Shown here in pieces: positions 128 to 14,756 of a stretch of 14,756 nucleotides of DNA. The stretch comes from a virus: positions 1 to 14,756 of the IMG/VR virus record IMGVR_UViG_3300021057_000107; one strand, 5' to 3'. Below the pieces are notes generated by a model, which did not search any database, was not told where the DNA came from, and saw nothing but the letters and a program-made list of their open reading frames with translations. Position 1 is the first letter of the stretch. The number at the start of each line of letters is the position of its first letter. Position numbers and translations under genes: made by a program.

Positions 128-259
128 GCCAACAGCACGGCCACCATGAGGAATACCCTTTAGCCAGCGGCCTTTTTCATCCCTAAAGCTCTTCGTTAAG
201 TCGCCTTTAGAGTCGTTTAATTTTGACGTTTCAATTATTTCAGGCTTTAGTTCATCCAT
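1..259 (-). CDS. 5' part of a junction-spanning 125-aa ORF; putative small terminase-like or DNA-binding packaging protein
   Basis: ATG at 259 has AAGGAG (271..266) 6 nt upstream. My hand translation, MDELKPEIIETSKLNDSKGDLTKSFRDEKGRWLKGIPHGGRAVGSKNKFQQL, runs off position 1 in frame with the 14511..14735 track ORF, whose first M is really an internal TTG Leu codon. The basic GRxxGSKNK motif followed by a helical ...AILPKE segment recalls DUF5681-type small-terminase-like phage proteins. That similarity is recalled, not searched. Confidence 0.5.
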   Translation of the reverse strand, partial: MDELKPEIIETSKLNDSKGDLTKSFRDEKGRWLKGIPHGGRAVGSKNKFQQLKYDLLEAWKTAKGKQKFLEMLNSTDKADFKWAVE

Positions 260-269
260 GCATAGCTCC

Positions 270-1273: not shown

Positions 1274-1358
1274 ATTTACTTAGGTGGGATTTTGCAACTA
1301 GGAGCATTACATCAATAAGTTTGGCTCTCTTTTGCAATGATTTACTCATACCCTTACC

Positions 1359-2825
1359 TTAAAAGTTATAGTCTATTTCAACATTTCCTTTAGGGAAAAC
1401 CCGAATAATCTTAATCAAAGCGTTTATCATATCTCGCTTTTCTTGTAGAGAAGCTTCTTCCCAATTTTGGTCAAACTCCCTATAAAATCTTTCTTTCTGC
1501 TTAAAATCCTCTTTTTTGGCCTTTTCTACCTCAAGTGAAGCCTTCAAAGAAGAGATATCCCCTTCAAGCTCCTTAATTTCCTTCCGGATTGCCTCGTATC
1601 TCTCCAAGAATTCATCTGGGGGGCTGTCTTGCTTCTCAAAAACCTGTAACCATTTCTTTTTAGCTAAATCTTTCGATTTTAGGGTTTTTTGTTTGTTTTC
1701 GATCTGTGCCTTAATATGGTCTATTTCCTGCTGTGAAGTTACATTTAAATGCCGCTGCATATATCTACTGTCATTTAAAAGCGCTCCAATATGCTCAAAG
1801 ATCATTTCCTTTACCGAACCTTCAAGCTTTTCTTTCTTATGAAATTTACGATGTTCACAGTCTCTTTTCTTGTTCCTTCGGTGGCAAGATGAACAGGCAT
1901 AATATCCTAAGCGACCTCTGTCCTTCTTTTGACTTGGAACCTCTCTTTTAACCATTTCACGCCCACAAAGACCACACTTAGCAACGTCTCTTAAAATAAA
2001 ATCCGGGGCCACACATGACCAACTCGCTTCGTAGCCTTTAAAGTTTGCGTCTCTAATTCTCTGAACTTCTTCAAACATAGGAATTTCGATAATGGGCGGG
2101 TGCTTTTGTTCATAGATAATTTCTTTAACTTTCATGCGTCCAGTATATTTAACATTCGTCAGTATTCGCATTATTTGCCTTCGATCAAGCTTAACCCTTG
2201 CGCTTATGCCTCGCCTTTCTAATTCAATTCGTACGCGGTTATCACTCTTATACTGCAAATACAATTTATAAATAAGCCTGACAATTTCTGCATCTTCCTC
2301 GACTATAACAAATCTTTTCTCAATGGTTTTATATCCAAAGGGCGGTTCTGATCCAAAATTTGTTCCATCACGCTGAACCTTCGTATATCTTCCAGTAATC
2401 ATACGCTCAGCGATATTGTCTCTTTCCATTTGAGCAAATACAGCAATTATGCCCATTATTGCCTCAGAAAACTTGGAGCTTGTATCAAAAGGCTCTGTAA
2501 CAGATTTATAGGTGACGCCGTAATTCTTAAACTCTTGCAGTAGTTCCAGAGTATCCCGTGCTGTTCTACTTAAACGATCTTGTTTCCACACAAATAAATG
2601 CTTAACTCTTCCGCGCCTTATATCTTGCCGCAGTCGTTCAAGTGAGGGTCTATCTACAAATGTAGCCCCACTGGAAGTATCAATATAGAAATCTTGTTCG
2701 GAAAGCTCTAAACCTTGTGACCTTGCAAAAGAAGAGATTCGATCTTTTTGTGTGTCTATTGAGGCGCGGTCTTCCCGAGCTTGTTCAAGAGTGCTGACTC
2801 GTATGTAAGCTTTGCTTGTTTTCAT
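1359..2825 (-). CDS. Large serine recombinase (phage-integrase type), 488 aa
   Basis: The N-terminal resolvase catalytic motif is KAYIRVSTLEQ (Ser11), with the LFVWKQDRLSR motif following. There is a central recombinase domain and a Cys-rich zinc ribbon, CGLCGREM...YYACSSCHRRNKKRDCEH. The long charged C-terminal coiled coil (about residues 360-470) is typical of large serine integrases. Confidence 0.95.
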   Translation of the reverse strand: MKTSKAYIRVSTLEQAREDRASIDTQKDRISSFARSQGLELSEQDFYIDTSSGATFVDRPSLERLRQDIRRGRVKHLFVWKQDRLSRTARDTLELLQEFKNYGVTYKSVTEPFDTSSKFSEAIMGIIAVFAQMERDNIAERMITGRYTKVQRDGTNFGSEPPFGYKTIEKRFVIVEEDAEIVRLIYKLYLQYKSDNRVRIELERRGISARVKLDRRQIMRILTNVKYTGRMKVKEIIYEQKHPPIIEIPMFEEVQRIRDANFKGYEASWSCVAPDFILRDVAKCGLCGREMVKREVPSQKKDRGRLGYYACSSCHRRNKKRDCEHRKFHKKEKLEGSVKEMIFEHIGALLNDSRYMQRHLNVTSQQEIDHIKAQIENKQKTLKSKDLAKKKWLQVFEKQDSPPDEFLERYEAIRKEIKELEGDISSLKASLEVEKAKKEDFKQKERFYREFDQNWEEASLQEKRDMINALIKIIRVFPKGNVEIDYNF

Positions 2826-2937
2826 TAACCTTGCTTGTTTTGTTTATTCTTCTTTCGACGGGTTTTTGATAAATCTTCCAGAAATCATTTTCTGCTGTTT
2901 CTTTAATATTCAAAAACTTAGCTCTTGCCTTAATCAT
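2785..2937 (-). CDS. Possible 50-aa basic micro-ORF coupled to the tyrosine recombinase stop (speculative; candidate accessory or directionality factor)
   Basis: It is absent from the track because it is under 60 aa. The ATG at 2937 overlaps the upstream TGA as ATGA (2934..2937), and GGAGGAG lies just upstream inside the end of the recombinase gene. My translation is MIKARAKFLNIKETAENDFWKIYQKPVERRINKTSKVNENKQSLHTSQHS. Its last 41 nt overlap the large serine recombinase start in another frame, which argues against it. Confidence 0.3.
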   Translation of the reverse strand: MIKARAKFLNIKETAENDFWKIYQKPVERRINKTSKVNENKQSLHTSQHS

Positions 2938-4571
2938 TTCTCCTCCTTTATTGGATTAAAGTATCTCCGGCTTTTTATTAACCATGCCGGAGGATTCTTA
3001 ATTATTTCTTGTACGTCAGACAGAATAACTTGATTCCTCGCCCGCGTTGAGTCACTTTTAATTAACCCTTGCTTTACATATTTATGGGCCGTTGTTAAAG
3101 AAATTCCCAATATCTTCCCCGCCTCTTCAACGGAAATATGATCCTTGCTTACATTCTGAGTTCTTTTCTGGTTAGCATAGAACTTTATTAACCATTCTGG
3201 CTTTGCCTGCAGGATGAGATCAATTTCGTTTTTGCTTAACTCCTTTGCTATGCCGTCATTTCTAACCTTGCTCAAATACCCCTTCTTAACCCAATCTTTT
3301 AACGTCATAACCGAAGTCTTGATATACTTAGCAGCTTCAGCGAACGTCAAGTAAGGATCTTTTGCTCTTTCTTCGGCTGCTTCGCGTAAAATATCCGCTG
3401 TAGTTTTCTTCTTGGCTTCATTAAGTCTCTGCTTTCTCCCTGCTACCTGTTCCTTTAGCCATGCCACACGACGCTCTAAAATGGCAACGTCCTTCTCTGT
3501 GACAAATTCGGAATCATCCTGGACGCCAAGACTTTTTCTTATTTTTTCGTAACCTTCGGTTATTTCATCCTCTTGTTTCTGACGTAGAACATCTTTTCCA
3601 CCAAAAAGCAAAGCATGATCTGCAAACATTTTTTGTGGACTAACATGTGTGTATACTTCGGTCGTTGAGATGCAGCTATGTCCTAATAATTCTTTAATCT
3701 CCAGGGTATTTGCTCCCCCCTCCAACAAATGCGTTGCAAAGGCGTGACGAAATAAATGAGGATGAACACGCTTATTCACTTTTTCCATTAAGGCATATTG
3801 CTTCATTTGTAAACCAACACGTGCTTTATGCAGTTTTTTGCCTTCGCCACTTCCTGCAACGGTAAGAAACACTTTACATTCGGGAAGTAAATCCTCTTTC
3901 TTCTTTGTTTTGTTGTAAGTAGAAATGGCTAGATTTGCCCGACGATTGATAAATACAATTCGTTGTTTAGAGCCTTTGCCAGTGACAACCGCTGATCCAT
4001 CCGATAAATTAAGGTCCTTATTTTCCATATTAAGCACCTCGCTTACTCGGCAACCAGTGCTGTAAAAAGTTTCTAGTAAAGCCCAGTCGCGCAATAACCG
4101 AATTAATGGAGCATTAATGATCTTACAAACTTCATTGACGCTTAGAACATTAGGAAGTGGCCTTTGCAGTTTGGGAAGATCCATTAATAGCCAGTTTGCA
4201 GTACTTGGGATAACTTCATTTCTGGCTAAGAAATTTCCGTAACCACGAAGAATAGTTATGATTCGATGTCTAAGATTTGGCGTAAGGTTGGAAATTTGAC
4301 CTAAAAACTCTCTGACGATTGACCTATCAATTTGATTAACGTTCTTTAAACCATTCTTATTGGTGAATTTTTGGAATCTTCCAAGATAACATTGGTAGGC
4401 TCTTATTGTACTATTTGATAAATTCTTGATCTCACAATCGGCAAGGTAACTCTTAATTGATTTATTTATTGAGTTACTGACAGGAAAAGGTAATTGTAAT
4501 GACCTTTTCTTATTTAGAAGACGAATAATCTCCTGGTGGGTTTCCCTTTTATAAGCAATATGATTAGCCAT
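2934..4571 (-). CDS. Tyrosine recombinase (XerC/XerD-integrase family core) with a roughly 225-aa C-terminal extension carrying two tandem excisionase/MerR-like HTH repeats
   Basis: An N-terminal SAM-like core-binding segment (YLADCEIKNLSNSTIRAYQCYLGRF) is present. A full catalytic set is readable: R174 (STGCRVSE), GKGSKQR, H272-x-x-R275 (HPHLFRHAFATHLL), H298 (LLGHS) and Y307 (TEVYTHV). Residues 321-545 add a coiled coil and two related roughly 57-aa modules, YLTFAEAAKYIKTSVMTLKDWVKKGYL...KPEWLIKF and HISVEEAGKILGISLTTAHKYVKQGLI...PPAWLIKS. Confidence 0.92.
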   Translation of the reverse strand: MANHIAYKRETHQEIIRLLNKKRSLQLPFPVSNSINKSIKSYLADCEIKNLSNSTIRAYQCYLGRFQKFTNKNGLKNVNQIDRSIVREFLGQISNLTPNLRHRIITILRGYGNFLARNEVIPSTANWLLMDLPKLQRPLPNVLSVNEVCKIINAPLIRLLRDWALLETFYSTGCRVSEVLNMENKDLNLSDGSAVVTGKGSKQRIVFINRRANLAISTYNKTKKKEDLLPECKVFLTVAGSGEGKKLHKARVGLQMKQYALMEKVNKRVHPHLFRHAFATHLLEGGANTLEIKELLGHSCISTTEVYTHVSPQKMFADHALLFGGKDVLRQKQEDEITEGYEKIRKSLGVQDDSEFVTEKDVAILERRVAWLKEQVAGRKQRLNEAKKKTTADILREAAEERAKDPYLTFAEAAKYIKTSVMTLKDWVKKGYLSKVRNDGIAKELSKNEIDLILQAKPEWLIKFYANQKRTQNVSKDHISVEEAGKILGISLTTAHKYVKQGLIKSDSTRARNQVILSDVQEIIKNPPAWLIKSRRYFNPIKEEK

Positions 4572-5112
4572 GATTTTTATTCTGGTATCTCAGTAAGTAA
4601 CCTGATTTTCTTCTTCGCCCTTTATCCTTGCTGCCCTGCGGCCTCCCTAAATCACGACCCTTCGCCTTCAATCTGGCTCTTGCACTAACAAGTCCAGCCC
4701 TTGTTCGCTCGCTGATTCTTTTTCGTTCCTGCTGGGCAACCCAACTAAATATTGCCAGCAAAAGCTGCCCTAATCCTTCGTCACGCGTGTCTAGCCAACT
4801 TTCCTGTAATGATTTAAGATCAACCCCATTGCGCTTTAACCGTTCAATGTAACCTAAGGTATTGCTAATTCCTTCACGAGAAAGGCGATCTAACGACCAC
4901 AAAAGAACTAAATCAAACTTCCTTTTGTCTGCATCTTCAAGCATACGTCTAAACTCCGCACGATCTCCATTACTACCGCTTGCCAAATCAACATATTCGT
5001 CAATAATCTCGCCGCCTAAGGCATCTGCATAATTCCTAAGAGGAATTAATTGATTCTGAGGGTCTTGACTTTCATCATTTTTTGAAACCCGGCAATAGAT
5101 AGCAATTTTCAT
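4564..5112 (-). CDS. Small serine recombinase (resolvase/invertase catalytic domain), 182 aa, lacking the usual C-terminal HTH
   Basis: The sequence shows MKIAIYCRVSKNDESQDPQNQ (Ser10), LLWSLDRLSR and the E-helix AQQERKRISERTRAGL. After GRP (residues 156-158) only a 24-aa basic tail remains (QGSKDKGRRRKSGYLLRYQNKNHG). The start overlaps the upstream stop as ATGA (5109..5112), with GGAG 7 nt upstream. The 3' end overlaps the tyrosine recombinase start by 8 nt. Confidence 0.9.
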   Translation of the reverse strand: MKIAIYCRVSKNDESQDPQNQLIPLRNYADALGGEIIDEYVDLASGSNGDRAEFRRMLEDADKRKFDLVLLWSLDRLSREGISNTLGYIERLKRNGVDLKSLQESWLDTRDEGLGQLLLAIFSWVAQQERKRISERTRAGLVSARARLKAKGRDLGRPQGSKDKGRRRKSGYLLRYQNKNHG

Positions 5113-5297
5113 ATGCAGTCTCCATTAAATTTCTTTTTATCAAAAACATTGTCTATGATTTTTTCCGCTTCATTTAATAATAAATATTCGCGACAGGCCT
5201 CCTCAATTAAGATCTGAGTTGCTTTGTCCAACATTGCAATTATCGGTGCGGGTTTCGATTCTGGCGGCTTTGCCTTTTTCCTGCTATTCTTTTTCAT
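5109..5297 (-). CDS. Hypothetical 62-aa protein with a lysine-rich N-terminus
   Basis: I prefer the ATG at 5297 (MKKNSRKKAKPP...) over the track's TTG at 5312, because it forms an ATGA overlap with the XRE gene stop (5294..5297). It is chained by another ATGA to the resolvase gene. I recognise no motif. Confidence 0.6.
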   Translation of the reverse strand: MKKNSRKKAKPPESKPAPIIAMLDKATQILIEEACREYLLLNEAEKIIDNVFDKKKFNGDCI

Positions 5298-5533
5298 CGT
5301 TGCTCCCGGCAAGTTGTAAGGCCTGATCCAAAAAGTGACGGATCAATTCGAGCTGGATCAACACCAAGAATTTTTGCAATAGTGATAACTTCACCCGTAC
5401 TGGGCGTACTCCTATTGGTTTCATACCGCGTTAAACGCGCCTCTTTTATTCCTGATTTCTCCGCAAGCTTGCGCTGGGTTAATTCGGCCTTTAACCGAAA
5501 CACTCGAATATTTTGACCTATACGATTTTCCAT
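5294..5533 (-). CDS. XRE / Cro-C1-type HTH regulator, 79 aa; first gene of the long leftward operon (Cro-like position)
   Basis: IRVFRLKAELTQRKLAEKSGIKEARLTRYETNRSTPSTGEVITIAKILGVDP is a classic HTH_3 pattern. AAGGAGG lies 4 nt upstream of the ATG at 5533. Confidence 0.88.
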   Translation of the reverse strand: MENRIGQNIRVFRLKAELTQRKLAEKSGIKEARLTRYETNRSTPSTGEVITIAKILGVDPARIDPSLFGSGLTTCREQR

Positions 5534-5573
5534 TTTTCCTCCTTGTTAAAACTTTCTTTATTAACCTTTAGAC

Positions 5574-5602
5574 AAAAAAAATCGACTCGATTTTCTAGTC
5601 GA
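5574..5602 (-). terminator. Intrinsic-terminator-like hairpin plus U8 tract in the leader of the leftward operon (alternatively an operator palindrome)
   Basis: The minus strand reads G-TCGACT-AGAAAATCG-AGTCGA-TTTTTTTT. That is a 6-bp perfect stem (5597..5602 with 5582..5587), a 9-nt loop, then eight U (plus-strand A run 5574..5581). The stem is short and only half GC, so it would be weak. Confidence 0.35.
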
Positions 5603-5673
5603 CAAACTTTCTATTAATGCTAAGATTATTAAATTGTTTTGGTTTTGCTTTCCGCATAATTATCTCTGGAATT

Positions 5674-5753
5674 TGGTAATATTTCATTACTATGGTAATA
5701 ATATATCACCCAACAAAACATTTGTCAATAATTGACTGGTAATTTTTTATCAC
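5674..5753. promoter_or_regulatory. Three 17-bp operator-like direct repeats in the divergent control region
   Basis: O1 is 5674..5690 TGGTAATATTTCATTAC. O2 is 5693..5709 TGGTAATAATATATCAC. O3 is 5737..5753 TGGTAATTTTTTATCAC. TGGTAAT is invariant, and the right end is TATCAC in O2 and O3. O2 covers the predicted leftward -10. O3 fills the rightward promoter spacer. Confidence 0.55.
5700..5728 (-). promoter_or_regulatory. Predicted leftward sigma70-type promoter
   Basis: On the minus strand, TTGACA (5728..5723) is followed by a 17-nt spacer and TATATT (5705..5700). This implies a leader of about 160 nt before the 79-aa XRE gene. Confidence 0.5.
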
Positions 5754-5759
5754 TATAAT
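5732..5759 (+). promoter_or_regulatory. Predicted rightward sigma70-type promoter driving a leaderless mRNA
   Basis: TTGACT (5732..5737) is followed by a 16-nt spacer and TATAAT (5754..5759). The A of the ATG at 5766 is the 7th nt after the -10, and no SD lies between them. This promoter sits back-to-back with the leftward -35, 3 bp apart. Confidence 0.65.
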
Positions 5760-5765
5760 CAGCTT

Positions 5766-6065
5766 ATGAACGTCACATGGAAGGAAGTTGCATCTGAAAT
5801 TCGAAAAAAGCGTAGGCTCTTAGATATAACTCAAGAAGAGTTCGCTAAAATGATTCATACTGGACAATCTTTTGTCGCGCAGATGGAGAAAGGCGAAAAA
5901 GTGCCCTCTATAGAGGTTGCTAAGAAGATTGCTAAGGAACTTGATATAGACTTTAACCGAATTAAGAATGCCATTATACTGAAAAAAGCAGAACCATTTT
6001 CCGCACCCGCAGGATCAACGATCCAGATAAAAACTCATACACGTATAATCATTCCAAAGAAGTAA
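5766..6065 (+). CDS. XRE-type HTH regulator, 99 aa; the only plus-strand gene (CI-like position), with no peptidase domain
   Basis: IRKKRRLLDITQEEFAKMIHTGQSFVAQMEKGEKVPSIEVAKKIAKELDID is an HTH_3 pattern. The gene is transcribed divergently from the 79-aa XRE gene. Confidence 0.88.
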   Translation: MNVTWKEVASEIRKKRRLLDITQEEFAKMIHTGQSFVAQMEKGEKVPSIEVAKKIAKELDIDFNRIKNAIILKKAEPFSAPAGSTIQIKTHTRIIIPKK

Positions 6066-6109
6066 AATAGGTTTGGTTTGCATTCTTCTCACTTCGCAAA
6101 TGAACGTAA

Positions 6110-6514
6110 TTATCCATGATTATATAGAGTAAAATTCTTATCTATCCATAATATGTGAAAAATTCTTCCCAATTTAAAGCCAACCATTGGAGCCTGACCT
6201 ATACAACGAAAAGCAATCATATCAACATCCTCTGTTACCTTAGCAGGAATCGACACTTTTAAAGCATTGCGAGCTATTTTTTCGTAACCAAGGCCGTCCC
6301 GCGGAGCTAATCTTAATTCCTTCCATGTCAATTTGCTTCTCTTATAGAGAGCCATTGCAAAATGAGCCTTTTGGTCTTTTTGACATGAATGGACACAATA
6401 TCCGTCAACCATAAATTCTAAAGAAAATATTGGAGTTTGATCGTCAGATTTGTCGGAGGGAACGTAATGCGGTTGGATTCTTCCAGTGTTTAGTTTAGGC
6501 TCGCGAAATGTCAC
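6110..6514 (-). CDS. Unrecognised 134-aa protein immediately downstream of a Panacea-domain antitoxin; candidate toxin
   Basis: A GTG start at 6514 lies 3 nt after the upstream TAA (6518..6520) with no separate SD, which suggests coupling. The C-terminus FRCIGQAPMVGFKLGRIFHILWIDKNFTLYNHG loosely recalls the terminal beta strands of RelE/ParE-like folds. That is weak and by eye only. Confidence 0.6.
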   Translation of the reverse strand: MTFREPKLNTGRIQPHYVPSDKSDDQTPIFSLEFMVDGYCVHSCQKDQKAHFAMALYKRSKLTWKELRLAPRDGLGYEKIARNALKVSIPAKVTEDVDMIAFRCIGQAPMVGFKLGRIFHILWIDKNFTLYNHG

Positions 6515-6517
6515 GAA

Positions 6518-6976
6518 TTATTCAACAACAAGGGTCTTAAAATATTCTTTCATTGAAGCGTGAGTGATAACCTCAACGCCAGCACCCTTTTCAAATGCTT
6601 CTTTCCAAGGAGCCTCTTCGTGAGTTAAATTTCTTAATTTCCAGGCGGAGAATTGACCAAAAACTCTATATACTTCATCCAAAAGGTCTTGAACTTTTTT
6701 ATCATAAATTGATAAGTCTAATTTATCGGGAGCAGGAATACTATCCGCACCATAATCTCTATATTTTCGATACAAGGACGGTATCACAGGACCATGTTGC
6801 CATGCCTCAATCTCCTCAGTAAACAAAGGCTCATTAAACATAGCCAAATGAAATCCTTGAGCATAATAACAAAGTTTCTGTAATTTAAGATTTGAGATCA
6901 TATCCCCTGCTTCAGGATCATTTTTGGCAAGAAAATAATTAGCAATATCTTCGACTGATAATTGGCGGGTAGGCAT
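6518..6976 (-). CDS. Panacea / DUF4065 (SocA, GepA-like) antitoxin-domain protein, 152 aa
   Basis: NLKLQKLCYYAQGFHLAMFNEPLFTEEIEAWQHGPVIPSLYRKY matches the family hallmark (LQKLLYYAQG...IEAW.HGPV...Y). AGGAG (6989..6985) lies upstream of the ATG at 6976. Confidence 0.85.
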   Translation of the reverse strand: MPTRQLSVEDIANYFLAKNDPEAGDMISNLKLQKLCYYAQGFHLAMFNEPLFTEEIEAWQHGPVIPSLYRKYRDYGADSIPAPDKLDLSIYDKKVQDLLDEVYRVFGQFSAWKLRNLTHEEAPWKEAFEKGAGVEVITHASMKEYFKTLVVE

Positions 6977-7002
6977 AAATATTTCTCCTATAAAGAGTGT
7001 AC

Positions 7003-7031
7003 AATATAGCGTAAAATTGTCAACTAGTCAA
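7003..7031 (-). promoter_or_regulatory. Predicted promoter of the antitoxin-toxin pair
   Basis: On the minus strand, TTGACT (7031..7026) is followed by a 17-nt spacer and TATATT (7008..7003). The leader to the SD is about 20 nt. A GTCAAC direct repeat (7019..7024 and 7027..7032) overlaps the -35 region. Confidence 0.55.
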
Positions 7032-7078
7032 CAGGTAAGAGTCTTGGGGTCATTTATTATAATTTAACTCTTTACTGT
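7031..7078. repeat. Imperfect 12-bp inverted repeat with a 24-bp spacer (48 bp overall) between terL and the TA module
   Basis: ACAGGTAAGAGT (7031..7042) pairs with ACTCTTTACTGT (7067..7078). The reverse complement of the right arm is ACAGTAAAGAGT, which matches 10 of 12 positions. Confidence 0.5.
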
Positions 7079-7141
7079 TAAAGAACAAGCAAAAACAGAT
7101 AAATTTAAACTTTTAACCAAAAAGAAGCGTCCTTTTCCCTT

Positions 7142-8533
7142 TTATCTTAATCCTAATTCCTTAAATGGATTCCAATTATCGTTTGATGAATATTGAGGTT
7201 GTCTAAAATGTGTATATTGCCTGTCTTGATCGTCCTTTACAGAATCAATAAGACTGGCCGCCATACAAAGCGAATCGAATAAATTTGGTGATTTAATTTT
7301 ATATTTATTACGCATCTCCTCCTTGCTGATTAATATCTTTCTGCCGTCATTGGCATATTTAAAACGGACGGTCATCATTTCCTGCACAATTTCCTCCGTT
7401 AGCCCACCTATCCAACCACGTGAAATATACTCCTTGAGTTTGTAAGCGGCTGCGGTGCGAGGATTCACATAATCGGGGTTCTTGTCCTTATCTAAAACAG
7501 GATTTCGGAAAGGCTCATAATTATTTAACCTATGCCCGCAAGTAATTGAATCAAAAGGCCCGCTTCCAAGGCCGTCAACGTCAATGATAGATCTTTCTGC
7601 ATTATGCTGCTTTGAAAGATTAATGATCCGACCAGTTGTATAATCAAGGTCTTTGTGTTCCCAAGTTTCTGAATGGACTACCATCCAATGCAAACGATTT
7701 ACTTGCTGTAGAACAACGCACGCGCTTTTGTCGGCTCCATATCGGGCCACATCAAATCCGGCAATTCGTAAACCATAGCCCGGACTAGGCGAGATTTCCT
7801 TCTTTGCCTCCATTAACTCTGAAAATCTATAAACAAGATCGTCACTTTCTGTTTCTTCAAAGCTGTTTAAAACATACCTACGATAGTGCGCCGGAGCGTC
7901 AATCTCCTTTCTTCTTAAATCCTGCACAAAGTCTTCACGGAGGTTCTTCTCATTCGCAAAACTGTTTGCCGTCAAACAATGGTAAACATCATTAATATAC
8001 TCAAATTCGCCCGTTGCTGAATTAATCGTATTTACCGTTTTTGCGCCATTAATCCATAACCTCCAAACCCAATTATGCCCATTAGCGTTTGCAATAACAC
8101 AAATAGGGCATACATTTGCTCCGTTATTCTGACGCATACGATCACGAAGAAACTGAAACGGCGTATCATCGTCAAATTCTTCCGCCTGTTCAATGCCGCA
8201 AATACCAAGGTTAAGATTTTTAAGGACCCTTAATTCATCGGCATGACGGAACATAATTAGTGATCCATTGTCCAAACGATAATTTTTGTCGACCGGAATT
8301 TTTTCTTCATAGTATTTCTCGAAGTCAACCATTGTTGAATCCCGCAAGTCGGTAAATTCTTTACGAACAATTAATCCCGTTGTTCTCTTGTATTTTGCAC
8401 AATAGTTAACGATCTTGTTTATCAATAACATCGTTTTTCCAGTTCCAACGGCTGAAATTAAGCAAGGGAATTTTGCCTCGCTATAAAGAAACCTATATTG
8501 ATAATTCCCCTTATCAACATTAAATGTTTGCAT
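7142..8533 (-). CDS. terL: Terminase large subunit, 463 aa
   Basis: The ATPase half shows Walker A SAVGTGKT, then GLIVRKEFTDLRDS, a Walker B-like LGICGIEQAEE and a coupling-like ANANG. The RNaseH-like nuclease acidic motifs are AGFDVARYGADKSA, IIDVDGLGSGPFD and SPNLFDSLCMA. Order and spacing are typical of tailed-phage TerL. Confidence 0.93.
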   Translation of the reverse strand: MQTFNVDKGNYQYRFLYSEAKFPCLISAVGTGKTMLLINKIVNYCAKYKRTTGLIVRKEFTDLRDSTMVDFEKYYEEKIPVDKNYRLDNGSLIMFRHADELRVLKNLNLGICGIEQAEEFDDDTPFQFLRDRMRQNNGANVCPICVIANANGHNWVWRLWINGAKTVNTINSATGEFEYINDVYHCLTANSFANEKNLREDFVQDLRRKEIDAPAHYRRYVLNSFEETESDDLVYRFSELMEAKKEISPSPGYGLRIAGFDVARYGADKSACVVLQQVNRLHWMVVHSETWEHKDLDYTTGRIINLSKQHNAERSIIDVDGLGSGPFDSITCGHRLNNYEPFRNPVLDKDKNPDYVNPRTAAAYKLKEYISRGWIGGLTEEIVQEMMTVRFKYANDGRKILISKEEMRNKYKIKSPNLFDSLCMAASLIDSVKDDQDRQYTHFRQPQYSSNDNWNPFKELGLR

Positions 8534-11500
8534 TTACCTGATCCTTTTATAAAGTTCTAAGACTTCAAGATTTAAAAGACCTGACTTCTTTGCTTCGGAT
8601 AATTTGTTAAGCAACTCTTCACCTTCAAGGCCTTCGGTTATTTCAAGAACCATACCGACACGGGCGGATACTTTTGCTTTATCTAGAATCTTATCTATAT
8701 TTTTTGCCTTTAACTCATCGTCGGTGTCTTCGTAAGAGTCCATTTGCATATAAGAAGAAATCTTATCAAAGGCTATTGCTCCGGCGTTTTGCCAAAGTTC
8801 CGTGTTCTGTTCTGGCGTTAATATGTCATAGCCTTCACGGCCTCCCAACAAAGTAGTCGATATTTCAAAACCCAGATCTGTTAGCCTCCGTAACTCCTGA
8901 ACAATGGGGTCTTTTATTTCCGTCATCGGTCTTGTAGGATCAGCCATGATTTCAAAGAAGTTTTCTGGAATGATCCGTTCTCTTCCTAGGACATCAATCT
9001 GTGGCTCTAGGCTGCTTCTAAGAAACGGAATCCTTGAAGCAATTGCATTTGATATGTTTTCAACCCGACGTTCTGTTTTGTCTGTTGCCTTTGCAATATC
9101 CGCTATTATCGTTGGCACAAATGAAGAGATGAGCCCAGAGGTGAAATACTCTGCAGATCGTTCTGGGTCGGTTAATGCGTCGATAGCCGAAGACATCCCC
9201 TTAAGAAACGTTTGCTCTGAGAAAGACTTTGCGCTTCCAAAGATCGTCTTTGATATTGCTTCTGTTGGGCTTCCTGATTCTTGAAGTCTTTTCGCAAACT
9301 GCCCGCCGATTAAGATAAGGTTTCCTGCAGGGCCTAAGACCTGAATTGATCGCCATGTATCACCGATTTTGATTGAATTAGCTTTTCGATTTTCAAGCTT
9401 TGCTAATTCCTTAAGTCTTTCGGAAATCGGTCTATCAAGGGTCAAGTCGCCCCTGTTGTAAAGATCATAACCAAACCACAAAAGCGGAACGCCTAATAAA
9501 GCACGGCCCATTCCTTTTGAAAAGTCGCGTTGATCCCATTTTCCTTTTCCGATATTTTCAAGAGCCGTCTTTATAACTCCGGCAGGGCTGTAGTTGATAA
9601 TCTGCATTGCAACGGCTGAAGGCGTCTTACTGAATGGTAGGACAAATTCACCTCCTGGGATATTCTGAATCGCTCGACCAGCTTTTGATAAGAAAGTTTC
9701 GTTCTGGAAAGTTGCTGCTTCAGCATCGGAAACTGCTAAAACCAGAGTATCATCAGTTGGATTTTCGATAAGATTGTTAATATAAGTTTCGGCTTCCTTG
9801 CCTTTTAAACCTTTATTCTTTGCGGCGACAATGGCTTGCTCTGCGATAGAACGAGCTTTTGCACCGTAATAAAATATCTGATCTTCTGCGCCTAGAATCT
9901 TAAAGACTCCTTCTTCATAAGCCTGTAGACCTTTGGCAATTTTTCCTTTACCAAATGATACGCGACGGTAATCAAACTTACCTAAAACGTTTCGCTCATC
10001 GTAACCAGTTTTTAAGAATCGCCAGCCCTTTTCGAAACCTTCTTTGATACCACTAGAAAGCCCTCTGGTTGTAAAGGCAACGGCTCGCTTCCCAGTGAAT
10101 AACGAAACAACACTATCAACAGCAACGGCTGGAATATCTTTTAAAACTTCCGTACCGAAGGCATGAGAAGCGTTGCTGAATATATTCAAGCCTGAAGTTT
10201 TAATGCCTGTGAGTAATCCGGCTTTCCAAACAGTCGTGATTTTCTTGAGCAATGGCGTAGGCACAAGATCATTTAGATAGTCTTGCATCTCTTTCCATGC
10301 GACGGCCTTGGCTTCTCCGTCGGGAAGTTGTGATATTGCGGTGACTCTATCACGAATAAACCTTGCTTGTTCGCCAGTAAGTTCCGGGATTTTCTTTCGT
10401 AGACCAAACATACCAGCGTCTTTCTCGACTTCAGCGTTGTATCGTTTAATGGTTTGAGCTGCGAATTTGATCTGTCCTTCAGGCGTTTGACGTGAAAGAA
10501 TAGAAGCTGCCTGCACAGAACGGCCTAACTCGGTTAATCGAACAGCCATATCATTTCCTAACTCAGCCGCCCTCTCATAGAGAGCGTCAGCTACAGCAGG
10601 CTCCGTGGCTTTCTCAGCTAATTCGGTATAATGTTTTAACAACTCTGCCCCTGTAGCAATTGAAGCATCATCAGTCCCGGTTCTTGCCATTGTCTCAGCA
10701 AGAGCTAAGTCCTCTTGAATTAACGTTCTTGCCTTTTGTGCTAACTCATCAGTACTTCTGGGTACATATTGCCCTGAGACTTTTAATATCGGCAGTTCTT
10801 CTTTGATCGAAGTAATAAATTTCCTTTCTTTGTATCCTGGTTTTATCGTTTCGCCTGCGGCAGCTTTAGCAACGGTCACGGGGTCTGTTGCTGCCTTACC
10901 TGCAGTTTCTCCGACAGCCTTAATTGCGGCCTTTGGGTCATTCGGTGCAGGAACGCCAGTATATAACTTAGGACTCTTAAGATATTTATCAGCCCTTTGG
11001 AAAAAATAAGCCTGAACCTCTGGACGTTGCATATAGGCCCAGGCTTCTTCAGCGTTCATGTTCATTTTTTCCATCACAGTGGAATGAATTTTAGCGGTCG
11101 AGTTCCTAAGAAGATTTCTAGCAGCGTTGATTTGATAGTTTTCTATCATGACTGGAATACTTTGAAGACCGCCATAAATAAACAAATCTTCAATCGCTCC
11201 GGCAACTGCCCGAGGAATTAAAGCGGCGATGCCTCCTTCACGCTCTTTTTGCGTAAATGGTATTCGATCATGTGCGGTGATCTTTACCACCGAAGAAGGC
11301 ATAACAACCGCTTTGATAACATCAGCACCTAACTCGTCAGTCTGACCTGTCACAACGTCGCCAACAAAAGCCCGAACTGGTTCATAAATCCTACCTACCA
11401 GAGTTTCAAAAGCAGCATCAGCAAGCTTTAGACCTGGGTCTACTACGGCACGATTTGCTTTGAGCCTGGCTTCAGTGTCAATCTTTCCCGTCATTAAAAA

Positions 11501-11797
11501 TGAACCTGCATCTTTAACATCTTGGGCCATTGATTGACCTACACCTTTGACAAACTCCGGCACGGCCTTAATGGTTTCCTTTGCCTTTTTCTCCATTGCA
11601 AACCAATTTTCGTCCGAAATAATCGGCTCAGCTTGAGCTAATATCTGCATAATCGACTGACGCGGAGACTTTCCATACTCATTTATATTAATGTGATGCT
11701 GCACATCAATGTCGTGCATATCGCCGGGATAAGACAAAGACTTATTTTTATCTTCAAGATAAATTTCTTTATTAGGTAAAACGGTAATAGGTAGCAT
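8534..11797 (-). CDS. Giant 1087-aa protein of unknown function; possibly virion-associated or packaged, by position only
   Basis: The frame is uninterrupted over 3264 nt. Its ATG overlaps the upstream stop as TAATG (11795..11799), and its TAA directly abuts the terL ATG (TAAATG, 8531..8536). It is mostly helical and Ala/Lys-rich, with a low-complexity linker (APNDPKAAIKAVGETAGKAATDPVTVAKAAAGE) and hydrophobic patches near the C-terminal third. I found no catalytic motif. Confidence 0.85.
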   Translation of the reverse strand: MLPITVLPNKEIYLEDKNKSLSYPGDMHDIDVQHHININEYGKSPRQSIMQILAQAEPIISDENWFAMEKKAKETIKAVPEFVKGVGQSMAQDVKDAGSFLMTGKIDTEARLKANRAVVDPGLKLADAAFETLVGRIYEPVRAFVGDVVTGQTDELGADVIKAVVMPSSVVKITAHDRIPFTQKEREGGIAALIPRAVAGAIEDLFIYGGLQSIPVMIENYQINAARNLLRNSTAKIHSTVMEKMNMNAEEAWAYMQRPEVQAYFFQRADKYLKSPKLYTGVPAPNDPKAAIKAVGETAGKAATDPVTVAKAAAGETIKPGYKERKFITSIKEELPILKVSGQYVPRSTDELAQKARTLIQEDLALAETMARTGTDDASIATGAELLKHYTELAEKATEPAVADALYERAAELGNDMAVRLTELGRSVQAASILSRQTPEGQIKFAAQTIKRYNAEVEKDAGMFGLRKKIPELTGEQARFIRDRVTAISQLPDGEAKAVAWKEMQDYLNDLVPTPLLKKITTVWKAGLLTGIKTSGLNIFSNASHAFGTEVLKDIPAVAVDSVVSLFTGKRAVAFTTRGLSSGIKEGFEKGWRFLKTGYDERNVLGKFDYRRVSFGKGKIAKGLQAYEEGVFKILGAEDQIFYYGAKARSIAEQAIVAAKNKGLKGKEAETYINNLIENPTDDTLVLAVSDAEAATFQNETFLSKAGRAIQNIPGGEFVLPFSKTPSAVAMQIINYSPAGVIKTALENIGKGKWDQRDFSKGMGRALLGVPLLWFGYDLYNRGDLTLDRPISERLKELAKLENRKANSIKIGDTWRSIQVLGPAGNLILIGGQFAKRLQESGSPTEAISKTIFGSAKSFSEQTFLKGMSSAIDALTDPERSAEYFTSGLISSFVPTIIADIAKATDKTERRVENISNAIASRIPFLRSSLEPQIDVLGRERIIPENFFEIMADPTRPMTEIKDPIVQELRRLTDLGFEISTTLLGGREGYDILTPEQNTELWQNAGAIAFDKISSYMQMDSYEDTDDELKAKNIDKILDKAKVSARVGMVLEITEGLEGEELLNKLSEAKKSGLLNLEVLELYKRIR

Positions 11798-13212
11798 TAA
11801 AGATCCTCAAAGTTGATTTGTAGGTTATTAAAAGCTGTACTCACCGGCTTTTGATTTACCTTCTTGCCCTTAGCCTTACTTTCTTTCTTGTACGCTCCGA
11901 TGATTCTATTTCGATTTCCGACAAGGTTAGGAACATCGGGAAGCTGTGTCGTTGAAGGAAAATTTTTGCGAATGTAGTCTTTTTGAACAGTCTGCATGAC
12001 AACATCGGGGTCGGCATTTGGTTGCTTATCTAGACGTTGAAAGAAATTAAATACAATCTCATCTTCGTCTTCCGGAAAAGACTTGGAAGCCCAATCGCCC
12101 AAAGCTTGTGCAGAAGCTCTTATTGTGATTGTTCGGGAGTCAAGTGGATCGTAAGCACTCTTAACTAAATACTCTCTATCCTGCGGCGTTAAACTGCTAA
12201 TGCTTTCGATAATCTTTTGATTAACTTCTTTCCGCTTCTTGCCTTCAAGCTGAAGAGCTTTAATCTGGTTGTAAGATTGAAAGTCCGTTCTCTCTGCCGG
12301 AGCATCATAAATTGAAGCGATATATTTCTCGCCAAAATCTTTTCGAATACCCGTTGAAATAAGCAGATCTTTGACTTTTGTTTGCGTTACCGTACCGAAA
12401 TTTAAAAGTAAATCAGTTTCGTTCTGATCCTGATTAAGATTGACAGTATGGTCATTCAAAATTCTATTACGCCGAATGTGTAATTTTGTTTTCTCCAAAC
12501 GCTCTGCTCTCTCAGCATCGGTAAGATGAGCGTATTCACCATCCTTGCCAGCTTGTAACTGACTATAAACCCAGGAATTTTCTTGTTCCAAAGCTTGATC
12601 TTGCATAATATCTAAATCAACAGAGCCAAGACGATAATCGTCCAAAAGCTTTCTTCCTCCGGCCTCAGTAATCACACCACTGACCACGTTAGCCTCAATC
12701 AATTGCCCCATCTTTTTATCAATGTCTTGCCTTACGGATATCTTCGGTGCATTAGACTTTTCAAGAGACATATTACGCACGGTTTCTTCAAGATTTTGGT
12801 AAGCCTTGAAATGCTGCTTTTGTTTGAATATTCCTTCAATTTCAATTTTGGCAATAGCCAGGTCCTTCTTAAAATGCAAAGCAACATTCTCCCGAACCTG
12901 GGCGTTTTTTATCTGAGTTGGCGAAAGTTTTTCGGCTTTATTAAGTTCTTTTAAATATTTTTCAACGTTGTCGGGGTTTTGGTCTTCAAGAGCTTGCTGC
13001 TTAACTCTAGCGATATGCGTTGAAACCTCTGCACTTGTCTTATTGACTTGCATAACATCATTCGCATTAGACCAATCCTGAGCAATCTGATTGACAGTGT
13101 TAAGAAGGTTTTGATTTGCTTGTGCTGCTTGATCGACTTCATTACGAATTGGAGCTTGTAATTTACTTTCAATATTACGTTTTGATGTATATGTTGGTAA
13201 TGATGGTGACAT
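11797..13212 (-). CDS. 471-aa charged, coiled-coil-rich protein of unknown function (scaffold-like or internal-protein-like is only a guess)
   Basis: I prefer the ATG at 13212 (MSPSLPTYTSKRN...), which has GAAAGGAA upstream, over the track's TTG at 13272. The extra 20 codons are a translation of a GC-rich hairpin. The composition is Gln/Lys/Glu-rich and helical. Confidence 0.8.
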   Translation of the reverse strand: MSPSLPTYTSKRNIESKLQAPIRNEVDQAAQANQNLLNTVNQIAQDWSNANDVMQVNKTSAEVSTHIARVKQQALEDQNPDNVEKYLKELNKAEKLSPTQIKNAQVRENVALHFKKDLAIAKIEIEGIFKQKQHFKAYQNLEETVRNMSLEKSNAPKISVRQDIDKKMGQLIEANVVSGVITEAGGRKLLDDYRLGSVDLDIMQDQALEQENSWVYSQLQAGKDGEYAHLTDAERAERLEKTKLHIRRNRILNDHTVNLNQDQNETDLLLNFGTVTQTKVKDLLISTGIRKDFGEKYIASIYDAPAERTDFQSYNQIKALQLEGKKRKEVNQKIIESISSLTPQDREYLVKSAYDPLDSRTITIRASAQALGDWASKSFPEDEDEIVFNFFQRLDKQPNADPDVVMQTVQKDYIRKNFPSTTQLPDVPNLVGNRNRIIGAYKKESKAKGKKVNQKPVSTAFNNLQINFEDL

Positions 13213-13232
13213 GAATTCCTTTCTTGCCGTAA

Positions 13233-13256
13233 CCCCCGGCCTTTTCAAACCAGGGG
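13233..13256 (-). other. GC-rich hairpin in the short gap before the 471-aa gene
   Basis: Minus-strand RNA forms CCCCUGG (13256..13250) paired with CCGGGGG (13239..13233). That is a 7-bp stem including one G-U wobble, with a 10-nt loop. On the plus strand the same position would be a C-A mismatch. No U tract follows. Confidence 0.45.
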
Positions 13257-13276
13257 CTAGGCAGACACACAAATTG

Positions 13277-13384
13277 TTAAGATAAGCGGTCGTCGTTTCT
13301 AGCGTCGTTCAATGCGCTATTACGTCCGCTGTTTGAATAAGTACATAAACTAACGTCTTTGTTAAAAGTAATCACTGTATCCAT
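13277..13384 (-). CDS. 35-aa micro-ORF with a strong ribosome-binding site
   Basis: It is absent from the track because it is under 60 aa. AAAGGAGG lies 6 nt upstream of the ATG at 13384, immediately after the upstream gene's stop. My translation is MDTVITFNKDVSLCTYSNSGRNSALNDARNDDRLS, with TAA at 13277..13279. It fills an otherwise empty 125-nt gap in a tightly packed operon. Confidence 0.5.
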   Translation of the reverse strand: MDTVITFNKDVSLCTYSNSGRNSALNDARNDDRLS

Positions 13385-13398
13385 AGTTGCCTCCTTTC

Positions 13399-13929
13399 TT
13401 AACCAAGCTTGGGTGTGTACTTGTCGGAAGTTGGTATTGGTTTGTTTTGACTTAGAGAATCAGAAAAGCCGCTGCCTTGCTCTCCTCCTCCGTCCTCAAT
13501 GCGATAACCAGAGCCGGATTTAACTTCTTTATATCCGTAACCGATGCCAGTGTTATGATTGTCAACGTCCTCACTTACTCCCCTTGATCGGTTTCCCTCC
13601 ACAAGGTTTGATGATTTTCTTGCATCAGGCCCTTTGCCATACTCTGCATCTCCAGTTTGCTCTTTTATGATCTGAACCTTTTCAGCTTCATAAGTTGTAA
13701 TCCAGCCTTTTAAATTGCAGCCCTTACCACTGGCAAACCCTGCCTCCATCATGTTGACAAATCTTACGGCTCGATCTGATTCTTCAAGCATTGGAATATT
13801 CTCTTCATCAAACTGACCGCCCCAGTAAGCGTGTTTCTTGTTGGATCGAATCTTTTGAGCCCATGCTTTACATTCTTCTGGTGAAACATAAAGCTCTTCG
13901 TCATCTCCTGGTATTTCGTTGTAGTTCAT
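13399..13929 (-). CDS. Hypothetical 176-aa protein with a Gly/Ser-rich C-terminal tail
   Basis: I prefer the ATG at 13929 (MNYNEIPGDDEE...), with AGGAGA (13942..13937) 7 nt upstream. The track start at 13965 lacks an SD and overlaps the previous gene by 20 nt. I recognise no motif. Confidence 0.75.
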   Translation of the reverse strand: MNYNEIPGDDEELYVSPEECKAWAQKIRSNKKHAYWGGQFDEENIPMLEESDRAVRFVNMMEAGFASGKGCNLKGWITTYEAEKVQIIKEQTGDAEYGKGPDARKSSNLVEGNRSRGVSEDVDNHNTGIGYGYKEVKSGSGYRIEDGGGEQGSGFSDSLSQNKPIPTSDKYTPKLG

Positions 13930-13945
13930 TGCGTTGTCTCCTTTT

Positions 13946-14197
13946 TCATTGTTCTCCATGCTCATGTTTTATTTGTCTAACCTTATTGGCCAGTTCTATG
14001 GTGTCATTCCAATCATGATAATAGACGTCACTACCTTTACTTTTTACTTCCATCATTTTTATAAACTTTCCGACTTCATTGTTTTCACGTATTTGGTGAT
14101 ACTGATGGCACTTTCTAAGAAGTACGAACATTATTTCTAAATCACTTTTTGATGATAAATAATCCCTCGCCTCCTGTAATGCTTCATAGTTTTTCAT
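13946..14197 (-). CDS. Hypothetical 83-aa protein
   Basis: The ATG at 14197 has AAGGA 7 nt upstream. The gene sits in the same-strand operon. I recognise no motif. Confidence 0.7.
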   Translation of the reverse strand: MKNYEALQEARDYLSSKSDLEIMFVLLRKCHQYHQIRENNEVGKFIKMMEVKSKGSDVYYHDWNDTIELANKVRQIKHEHGEQ

Positions 14198-14242
14198 TTT
14201 CTTTTCCTTTCTTAACTGTTTTTACAATGCCTCTCCATTGCG

Positions 14243-14422
14243 CTAGGATGCCCTAGGTTGCGTTTTTTCTGATTGTTCCACCATTGCATCTGCATACTGG
14301 AAAGCTAACGTAGCACAATCTTGTGGTTTTCTCGTCGACCAAATTGAAATAATTGTGTACAAAGCAGCAGCAGCAAAAAGATCACGCTTTGTAACTCCCG
14401 TTTGTTGCGTTGTGTTTTCCAT
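14243..14422 (-). CDS. 59-aa small protein with one hydrophobic helix
   Basis: It falls just under the track cutoff. The ATG at 14422 has AAGGAGA 5 nt upstream. My translation is MENTTQQTGVTKRDLFAAAALYTIISIWSTRKPQDCATLAFQYADAMVEQSEKTQPRAS, with TAG at 14243..14245. The RD-LFAAAAL segment recalls a common small phage protein type; that is recalled, not searched. Confidence 0.6.
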   Translation of the reverse strand: MENTTQQTGVTKRDLFAAAALYTIISIWSTRKPQDCATLAFQYADAMVEQSEKTQPRAS

Positions 14423-14510
14423 GTCTCTCCTTATCTCTTATTCAAATAATCGTTCGTTTATTTGTTTGTGTTTTTTATTCTTTGTAAACCCTAAAAAATC
14501 AGGGGGAGTA

Positions 14511-14756
14511 TTATTTGTTACCATCGGCCTTTTTTTCTGTTGGATCATTAATAACAATTAAAACCTTTGGTTCGCCCACAGTGGCGTCAATATCAATTAA
14601 TGACTCTTTTGGCAAGATCGCAACAATGCGCTCAACGGCCCATTTAAAATCTGCCTTGTCTGTACTGTTCAGCATCTCCAAAAACTTTTGCTTTCCTTTT
14701 GCCGTTTTCCAGGCTTCAAGCAGATCATATTTCAACTGTTGGAACTTATTTTTAGA
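14511..14756 (-). CDS. 3' part of the same junction-spanning ORF (14630..14756 duplicates 1..127)
   Basis: The frame is continuous with 1..259 through the repeat. The stop is TAA at 14511..14513. The joined length is 378 nt, which is 125 aa plus stop. Confidence 0.5.
   Translation of the reverse strand, partial: SKNKFQQLKYDLLEAWKTAKGKQKFLEMLNSTDKADFKWAVERIVAILPKESLIDIDATVGEPKVLIVINDPTEKKADGNK
14630..14756. repeat. Terminal direct repeat, copy 2, identical to 1..127
   Basis: Same comparison as copy 1. The repeat starts at the g of caacaatgcg|ctcaacggcc and runs to the last base of the window. Confidence 0.95.

Follow-up and report, generated by a model that had tools for sequence, protein, structure and literature searches.

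Satellites of the SaPI type, among the phage-inducible chromosomal islands (PICIs), carry a small terminase (TerS) and use the large terminase (TerL) of the helper phage, and the SaPI1 protein CpmB has a C-terminal capsid-binding motif in common with the scaffold of phage 80alpha, with which it competes for the coat-protein site to yield small capsids (PMC5644958). VEIMEs, PICMIs and P4 also leave TerL to the helper, some VEIMEs carrying TerS and serine recombinases. Among described satellites, a large terminase is found in the cf-PICIs and in the Streptomyces satellites MulchRoom and MiniFlayer, which also encode major capsid protein (MCP), portal, protease or scaffold, and head-tail adaptors, and steal only tails. 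Here we analyse IMG/VR virus record IMGVR_UViG_3300021057_000107, positions 1 to 14,756, the whole of which is called the window below. It encodes a TerL, a protein related to one end of a phage scaffold and two proteins related to phage ejection proteins, but neither portal nor MCP. Judged by its genes, the window is probably an integrative phage satellite of 14.6 kb, belonging to a new family that would use helper procapsids by means of its own packaging motor and a scaffold mimic.

The comparison with SaPI-type PICIs is instructive in both directions. Like them, the window and its relatives are about 11-15 kb long, about one third of the helper genome proposed below, and combine an integrase, a divergent repressor switch, a primase-type replication module, a putative packaging and assembly-hijack module and cargo, with direct repeats at the integration site of the relatives and with no capsid, tail or lysis genes. 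The size of the elements relative to the proposed helper genome, ~0.3-0.37, would be the same ratio as that of SaPI1 to 80alpha or of P4 to P2. By analogy with SaPI1, a small protein of the window, p188, would carry the capsid-binding end of the helper scaffold, as CpmB does, without sequence relation between the two. Unlike SaPIs, the window family carries TerL and no recognisable TerS; it has no sequence relation to CpmA/B, Ppi or Stl, an extra serine resolvase, and putative helpers that are podoviruses with T7-like gene order rather than siphoviruses, and its window member carries ejection proteins. From the cf-PICI set (MCP, portal, protease, adaptors, TerS, TerL, HNH) the window has TerL only. 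With marine VEIMEs, PICMIs and P4-like satellites it would share a small, integrative and helper-capsid-dependent existence, whereas no member of these groups is reported to combine TerL with a scaffold-derived protein or to encode ejection proteins. A limited literature search found no description of a satellite with TerL and a scaffold fragment but no shell, nor of one with ejection proteins.

A circular element with a large terminase and no shell genes

Two features come first:

1-127, no strand: assembly overlap, an exact 127-nt terminal repeat of 14630-14756
7142-8533, minus strand: TerL, 463 amino acids (aa), intact, with the invariant residues present

The identity of bases 1-127 with 14630-14756 is an exact 127-bp end overlap that leaves a unique circle of 14,629 bp. 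An independent Logan assembly of SRR7004167 yielded a 14,659-bp contig (L001) with a 30-nt overlap, 14,629 unique bases and 0 mismatches to the window, its start being permuted and its breakpoint different from the window's. The window is a complete circular copy of the element and not one assembler's accident; the circle could represent an excised, replicating or concatemer-derived form. It is very improbable that a larger phage genome, or two genomes, were collapsed or joined into a chimeric circle. The data are a short-read metagenome assembly, in which repeats can yield circles, but two assemblers with different k-mer sizes produced the identical 14,629-bp circle with different breakpoints, the contigs on record that encode the 1087-aa protein described below (4/4) fall in the 10-20-kb class, and integrated relatives have the same backbone. 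Neither internal long repeats, iterons or pac-like repeats nor tRNAs were found in the window.

An earlier note on this DNA, made from its letters alone, had called the TerL unmistakable and had recognised no capsid, portal, protease, tail or lysis gene, and both statements are borne out. TerL matches PHROG_2 (E 4.7e-23) over residues 10-433 and has 833 homologues in the database, the majority with Pfam Terminase_3 (PF04466) or Terminase_6N (PF03237); these domains are carried by homologues 50-64 % identical to the window's protein, which itself has no Pfam terminase match and scores 31 bits against NCBIfam TIGR01547, where the cut-off is 105. Walker A (VGTGKT) occupies residues 29-34, with G32, K33 and T34 conserved. 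The acidic residues E115, E118 and E119 of the N-terminal ATPase, invariant across a 37-sequence alignment, are present in the window, as are D261, D318 and D420 of the C-terminal RNase-H-like nuclease, which also fall in invariant alignment columns, and residues 378-428 align in weak matches with the nuclease domain of Sf6 gp2 and of another solved TerL in the PDB. The protein is at most 64 % identical to any other TerL, the other members of its clade being 72-76 % identical among themselves.

Shell genes were sought in the circularised window, translated in all six frames, with hidden Markov models (HMMs) built from the related phage lineage and run without filters; the models stood for portal (51 sequences), MCP (34), capsid-assembly protein (32), nozzle, tail-tube A, gp14-like protein, TerS and others. 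No portal, MCP, nozzle, tail-tube A, gp14-like protein or TerS was detected in the circle by these HMMs, the single match being that of the scaffold profile on p188. As a positive control, the same HMMs detect their genes, at E 1e-25 to 1e-252, in phages so distant that TerL identity to the window is only 40-43 %. Pfam, PHROGs and NCBIfam revealed no protease, tail or lysis gene in the window, there is no fibre gene in the circle, none of the P4 genes psu, sid and delta was found in the window, and no TerS or Rpp was recognised in it by Pfam, PHROGs, lineage HMM or hhalign.

Scaffold-derived and internal virion proteins

Three genes lie upstream of terL and are read in its direction:

13399-13965, minus strand: mini-scaffold (p188), an open reading frame (ORF) of 188 aa; likely start M13 at 13929, giving 176 aa
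11797-13212, minus strand: internal virion protein C, gp15 position (p491), 471 aa when read from the ATG at 13212, or 491 aa if translation begins at a TTG at 13272
8534-11797, minus strand: internal virion protein D, the ejection protein of the gp16 position (p1087), 1087 aa; assigned by tblastn, PHROG_6651, an AlphaFold2 (AF2) model with Foldseek, and synteny

The scaffold profile meets p188 with the last 50 of its positions, aligned to residues 17-72 (E 1.7e-4). When the two families were compared as profiles by hhalign, p188 and the scaffold matched at 97.6 % (E 3.3e-12, scaffold columns 235-284 of 289), while seven other structural families of the same phages gave <5 % each. In the reverse direction, the p188-family HMM matches the C-termini of 23 phage scaffold ORFs, and also short ORFs beside TerL at the loci L007, L043, L101 and L103 considered below; an exhaustive phmmer search found ten relatives of p188 in all, eight of them short (132-227 aa). 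The full-length family lies between portal and MCP, which is the position of T7 gene 9, and the genomes of cultured Pelagibacter podophages label it "(putative) capsid assembly protein". AF2 predicts a confident three-helix domain for residues 20-105 of p188 and a disordered C-terminal tail; a search of the PDB with the p188-family profile returned nothing. As judged from these profile comparisons, p188 is a truncated scaffold, in which the three-helix domain at the N-terminus corresponds by homology to the domain that ends the phage capsid-assembly protein at its C-terminus. A role as the gp14 equivalent, suggested by its identical position, was rejected, the gp14-family HMM being silent and hhalign giving 0.2 %. 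Scaffolds of the podovirus lineage (L010:13946-14827 and 22 others) often contain the motif TPEEA..I..D..HPYW...R..AV.FV.RL twice, once internally (~residues 130-185) and once at the C-terminus.

The two large ORFs belong to a different part of the virion. Homologues of p1087 number 110, many of them on contigs of 25-47 kb, and its tblastn matches include genes annotated "internal virion protein D" in Roseobacter phages, Desulfovibrio podophages and the Autographiviridae phage ProddE, whose annotation lists MCP, tail tubular A and B, internal virion proteins B, C and D, and fibre in that order. In metagenomic phages on contigs of up to 40.9 kb, full-length homologues of 55-60 % identity are always the last of a trio of genes (protein sizes ~170, 470 and 1100 aa) that follows a nozzle-like gene of ~670-800 aa. 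The trio opens with a gene of PHROG_418, "internal virion protein", or, at locus L104, with a Pfam T7_gp14 gene that follows a T7_Gp13-like gene. The middle gene (470-527 aa) is 39-47 % identical to p491 and in complete phages always directly precedes the homologue of internal virion protein D. Supported by sequence, synteny and predicted fold, p491 and p1087 are identified as homologues of the internal virion proteins in the T7 gp15 and gp16 positions.

The AF2 model of p1087 is all-alpha (predicted local distance difference test score, pLDDT, 78) and in a Foldseek search of BFVD matches "internal virion protein" of Pelagibacter and Synechococcus podophages and large polyvalent proteins, with E 1e-13 to 1e-27; against the PDB no Foldseek match had E below 0.08, and the sequences of p1087 and p491 found nothing useful among PDB chains. 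Position, size and predicted all-alpha fold agree with p491 and p1087 being the second and third genes of the gp14/15/16 core of T7 and of the "internal virion proteins B/C/D" of Autographiviridae and HTVC010P-type podophages. They differ from T7-type ejectosome genes in lying on a capsid-less integrative element, directly upstream of terL, and in lacking a gp14 equivalent, an SLT or lysozyme domain and an effector insert. No Pfam domain was found in p1087, and the N-terminal lytic transglycosylase of T7 gp16 is absent, PF01464 occurring in just one distant homologue. A member of the large polyvalent protein family, p1087 has in common with such proteins of phages and conjugative elements a conserved C-terminal scaffold of ~780 aa. 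Many of its homologues carry effector modules (ART-PolyVal, Zeta toxin, RelA/SpoT, DnaJ, ParB, LPD3, SLT), whereas p1087 is bare of any, and its disordered linker, residues 269-349, is the exact site of the ART insert in L104 (L104:10001-14137). The effector-insert site of these gp16-like proteins looks like a hot spot for module exchange.

The junctions between these genes are tight. The stop codon of p1087 abuts the TerL start (TAAATG), and the ATG of p491 is preceded by a ribosome-binding site (RBS) and a hairpin; in the gap between p188 and p491 a 35-aa ORF (13276-13383, minus strand) has a strong AAGGAGG RBS and is followed by a GC-rich hairpin before the p491 ATG. GC content at third codon positions (GC3) is even across the window genes, total GC being higher in p1087, and a composition test for recent acquisition of the internal virion protein genes gave no signal, GC3 being uniform. 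The stop-start coupling of p1087 with terL, together with the uniform GC3, argues against a recent sloppy insertion.

These assignments change the picture drawn in the earlier note, which had listed the 471-aa and 1087-aa ORFs as proteins of unknown function and had seen only these and small ORFs between a supposed TerS-like gene and terL: ejection proteins and a scaffold-derived ORF (176/188 aa) lie there. It had also allowed that the large ORFs might prove to be a normal capsid and portal, or a divergent structural set, which homology, position and the fold search of p1087 contradict. A related proposal, that the element is a minimal autonomous tailed virus with capsid, portal and tail too divergent to recognise, is exceedingly improbable. 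It could draw on the small ORFs p177, p125, p83, p59 and p67 (named by their lengths), which are unannotated, but with both large ORFs accounted for as internal virion proteins the remaining ORFs, the largest unannotated one being of 177 aa, are too small for a portal (545 aa in the lineage) or an MCP (283 aa) and have no profile match, so that no ORF is left for capsid or portal; moreover, ordinary portal and MCP genes serve all the phages that have the same TerL.

Ordinary podovirus relatives and capsid-less islands

The comparison covered 80 IMG/VR loci, a few loci from metagenome-assembled genomes (MAGs) and two further contigs. All of the loci with a TerL at least 49 % identical to the window's and enough downstream sequence (25/25) carry portal, scaffold and MCP after TerL. 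Their order is TerS, TerL, two small genes, portal (Pfam Head-tail_con), an 84-aa gene, scaffold, MCP, tail-tube A, nozzle, the trio and fibre, and several of the contigs with this ordinary order are ~38.7-41.5 kb long. Because portal, scaffold and MCP come right after TerL in every comparable locus, the window order (p188, p491, p1087 and TerL alone) is exceptional, and on the evidence of gene order it is not derivable from the phage order by one deletion. The phages at L002/L003 and L097 have glycosyltransferases, an epimerase, radical-SAM and amine oxidase-like genes between fibre and TerS, an unusual cargo for podoviruses of ~40 kb.

TerL with a mini-scaffold and without a portal recurs in four other contexts, in none of which did the lineage HMMs find portal, MCP, nozzle, tail-tube or TerS. 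Searches of genome contigs with the single TerL found no locus and with a TerL alignment found 4; of the p188-family alignments used in locus scans, a 3-sequence version drew a blank in metagenome and viral contigs, and only version A5 found L103. The first context (L007/L008/L009) consists of bacterial scaffolds of up to 834 kb with a TerL 62 % identical to the window's. Here the gene immediately upstream of TerL encodes a 127-aa protein of the p188 family (E 5e-18), accompanied by a zinc-finger gene and AAA_25 helicase, a cI/cro pair, a resolvase, a tyrosine integrase and a p125 homologue, in an island of 12.7 kb bounded by tRNA-Ser(TGA) and a repeat of the tRNA 3' end. Just upstream of this tRNA-Ser is a second tyrosine integrase (388 aa, L007:4601-6181) with HTH_17 and MerR genes, to which the L103 integrase is 53 % identical; it may belong to another element at the same tRNA locus. 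The second complete island is on L103 (Ga0082335_1000524), a contig of 96.6 kb with a TerL 40 % identical to the window's. A 168-aa mini-scaffold directly downstream of TerL is associated with a resolvase, a zinc-finger gene and D5-type primase-helicase, a p125 homologue and a tyrosine integrase, in 11.46 kb flanked on either side by an exact 44-bp copy of the tRNA-Met 5' part. Its flanks are bacterial (UbiA, PilZ/MshEN, tRNA-Val and YebC genes), and the YebC clusters at >=90 % identity with a protein from a Candidatus Omnitrophota MAG; one gp16-like homologue (P0025) also comes from an Omnitrophota MAG. At L043/L102, a 226-aa mini-scaffold (scaffold HMM 1.6e-25) comes immediately after TerL with no portal beyond it, and at L101 the order is mini-scaffold, 62-aa ORF and TerL, the next gene being DUF559-like and not a portal.

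The window and the islands have in common the resolvase, p125, the zinc-finger protein and TerL (40-62 %); the two complete islands, L007 and L103, are without internal virion protein genes. The TerLs of the five elements are 38-62 % identical to one another, and each has its nearest phage TerLs in a different subclade, an interleaving that is expected if each element tracks its own helper. The retention of so odd a subset of genes in five diverged elements points to long maintenance under selection.

These comparisons bear directly on the possibility that the window is a decaying (cryptic) prophage remnant still able to excise, in which TerL, the internal virion proteins and the scaffold fragment would be non-functional podovirus leftovers. 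The closest relatives of all its phage-like genes are indeed in complete 40-kb phages, the gp14 equivalent, TerS and fibre are missing, and the architecture with internal virion protein genes has been found just once. Set against this, the ORFs are full length and tightly coupled in translation, the invariant residues of TerL are all intact, the gene order needs more than one deletion from that of the phages, and TerL with a truncated scaffold, but no portal or MCP, is kept in five elements across the divergence of TerL noted above. Two of these elements are cleanly bounded islands of satellite size (11.5 and 12.7 kb) and not prophage pieces, in answer to the earlier note's concern that relatives might always sit inside larger complete prophages. 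A decaying prophage is, on balance, decidedly unlikely.

Backbone genes, cargo and the proposed parasitism of podoviruses

All window genes but one are encoded on the minus strand, the exception being the plus-strand cI-like helix-turn-helix (HTH) gene. The minus-strand order is cro-like HTH gene (with cI-like divergent), 67-aa ORF, small serine resolvase, 545-aa tyrosine recombinase, large serine recombinase, CHC2 zinc-finger gene, p177, p125 (across the window junction), p59, p83, p188, p491, p1087, TerL, SocA/Panacea gene and p134. Beyond the genes already listed, the features are:

5294-6065, both strands: divergent HTH regulators, cro-like (5294-5533, minus) and cI-like (5766-6065, plus), with HTH_3 matches
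4564-5112, minus strand: small serine resolvase/invertase, 182 aa, a family core gene (PF00239 3e-36)
2934-4571, minus strand: tyrosine recombinase, 545 aa (PF00589 2.2e-31), with two C-terminal HTH_17/MerR-like domains (PF12728)
1359-2825, minus strand: large serine recombinase, 488 aa, with Resolvase, Recombinase and Zn_ribbon_recom domains; candidate integrase of the window element
800-1273, minus strand: CHC2 (DnaG-type) zinc-finger protein, 157 aa, of the replication module (PF01807 3.7e-19), without TOPRIM
270-803, minus strand: 177-aa ORF, no family match, downstream of the zinc-finger gene in the helicase position of the L007 and L103 islands
128-259, minus strand: 5' part of the 125-aa protein, coordinates derived from the circle (the ORF continues at 1-259)
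14511-14756, minus strand: 3' part of the 125-aa conserved island protein, across the circle junction; complete as L001:6123-6500
14243-14422, minus strand: 59-aa small protein (phrog_2201 1.3e-8; phrog_30599 "transcriptional regulator" 0.007), possibly an HTH regulator
13946-14197, minus strand: 83-aa ORF, no family match
6110-6976, minus strand: cargo, a SocA/Panacea antitoxin-like gene (6518-6976) with a 134-aa partner (6110-6514) (PF13274 6.8e-22; phrog_8366 4.6e-46)

The layout of integrase, repressor switch, replication module, packaging and assembly genes and then cargo is the classical plan of a PICI. From the members compared, the family core would comprise a tyrosine recombinase, small serine resolvase, cI/cro-type switch, CHC2 zinc-finger gene with or without helicase, 125-aa protein, TerL and mini-scaffold, in elements of 11-15 kb, both integrated members residing in tRNA genes. 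Among the backbone genes of the islands the resolvase is the best conserved, the window protein having 76 % identity to that of L103 and 54 % to that of L007. The window zinc-finger protein is 31-34 % identical to those of the L007 and L103 islands, and the window itself has no helicase or TOPRIM domain. Three recombinases of three kinds stand side by side at 1359-5112 (minus). The cro/cI intergenic region, 5534-5765, looks from its sequence like a genetic switch: two back-to-back sites there, at 5700-5759, are the best sigma-70-like matches anywhere in the window.

The 125-aa protein is 60 % identical to a 141-aa protein (p141) of L007, to which the 124-aa protein (p124) of L103 is 30 % identical. 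It lies ~6 kb from terL and is most likely the gene that the earlier note took to be TerS-like; the distance holds, and the identity finds no support. No Pfam, PHROG or NCBIfam family matches p125, and with hhalign at 3.5 % against the TerS family of the lineage and no profile support it was rejected as TerS. Its profile finds in the PDB only designed armadillo repeats (4rv1, 4hxt; E 1e-19), through seven repeated stretches, which suggests a single ARM/HEAT-like helical unit.

The cargo pair, placed just after terL, is probably, as far as its family matches indicate, a PanA/PanT-type toxin-antitoxin or defence cargo; a PADLOC match to NsnC is weak (7e-6). Such a pair is one reason to ask whether the whole element is a phage-defence island, in which TerL and the scaffold mimic would sabotage podovirus assembly and packaging, and which would spread mainly vertically or by other routes than hijacked capsids. 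A scaffold competitor and a foreign terminase would both disturb phage assembly, and known satellites double as defence systems (PMC10085698, PMC9618062). As a full account this is rather unlikely: a 463-aa motor that looks catalytically intact by its residues and two large ejection proteins would be left unexplained, and the integrase, resolvase, switch and replication genes form a classical satellite layout. Defence and transfer are compatible and not mutually exclusive.

We favour, then, a satellite that would travel in borrowed capsids. More specifically, and with a likelihood approaching but short of even, we propose a new satellite family in uncultivated bacteria (probably Omnitrophota and others), whose members would parasitise podoviruses of T7 gene order with their own motor and a truncated scaffold but no shell, the window member adding gp15/gp16-like ejection proteins and so controlling both the entry of DNA into the capsid and its exit to the next cell. 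The helpers would be HTVC010P-type podoviruses of ~40 kb with T7-like gene order; the hosts of at least some of them are probably Candidatus Omnitrophota, and the system of phage and satellite may infect Omnitrophota. Infection by the helper would derepress the element, which would be excised and replicated. The mini-scaffold would bind the helper capsid protein through the domain held in common with the scaffold C-terminus, competing with or redirecting assembly; the size ratio of the element to a helper lineage of 39-41 kb, 0.29-0.37, is that required for going from T=7 to T=4. The satellite TerL would dock on the helper portal and package satellite DNA. In the window member alone, its own gp15- and gp16-like proteins would be built into the particle, forming part of the DNA-delivery channel. 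Incorporation into the stolen capsid, in the service of satellite genome delivery, appears the likeliest role of these proteins; because two complete islands do without them, they could instead be accessory genes in the course of being gained or lost. The earlier note's idea of a capsid-less element hijacking with its own terminase is supported by comparative genomics in regard to an own TerL and a presumably borrowed shell, and finds no support in regard to TerS; its term "self-packaging" was overstated, since the terminase would still need the helper's portal-bearing procapsid.

Several observations weigh against this proposal. The lack of a recognised TerS in the window leaves packaging specificity unexplained, and the missing gp14 equivalent makes the ejection set incomplete. 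The architecture carrying internal virion proteins is known from one sample only, no helper was identified in that sample, and the closest homologue of internal virion protein D (P0003) is from a different one. The att site of the window was not found, no L007-like att site or tRNA fragment being present in it. The 293-aa phage protein is called a scaffold by position and database annotation, one weak PHROG match says "protease", and a Foldseek search of BFVD with the p188 model gave nothing significant. Finally, the domain common to p188 and the scaffold could bind portal or terminase and not coat protein, a possibility we rank as less likely.

Known satellites follow one of two routes, making a complete capsid of their own or redirecting the helper terminase by way of TerS, Rpp or cos sites; a motor combined with a scaffold fragment would, if the proposal is true, be a third strategy. 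It would mean that TerL-portal compatibility, and not just TerS-DNA specificity, can be a point of piracy, and with an ejectosome encoded by the satellite, piracy would reach as far as the delivery of DNA, of which we found no report. The combination of TerL with a short ORF of the scaffold C-terminal domain, and no portal within a few kb, offers a searchable signature for podovirus satellites in uncultured phyla, where none are known, and the C-terminal domain of HTVC010P-type capsid-assembly proteins emerges as a functional module worth structural study.

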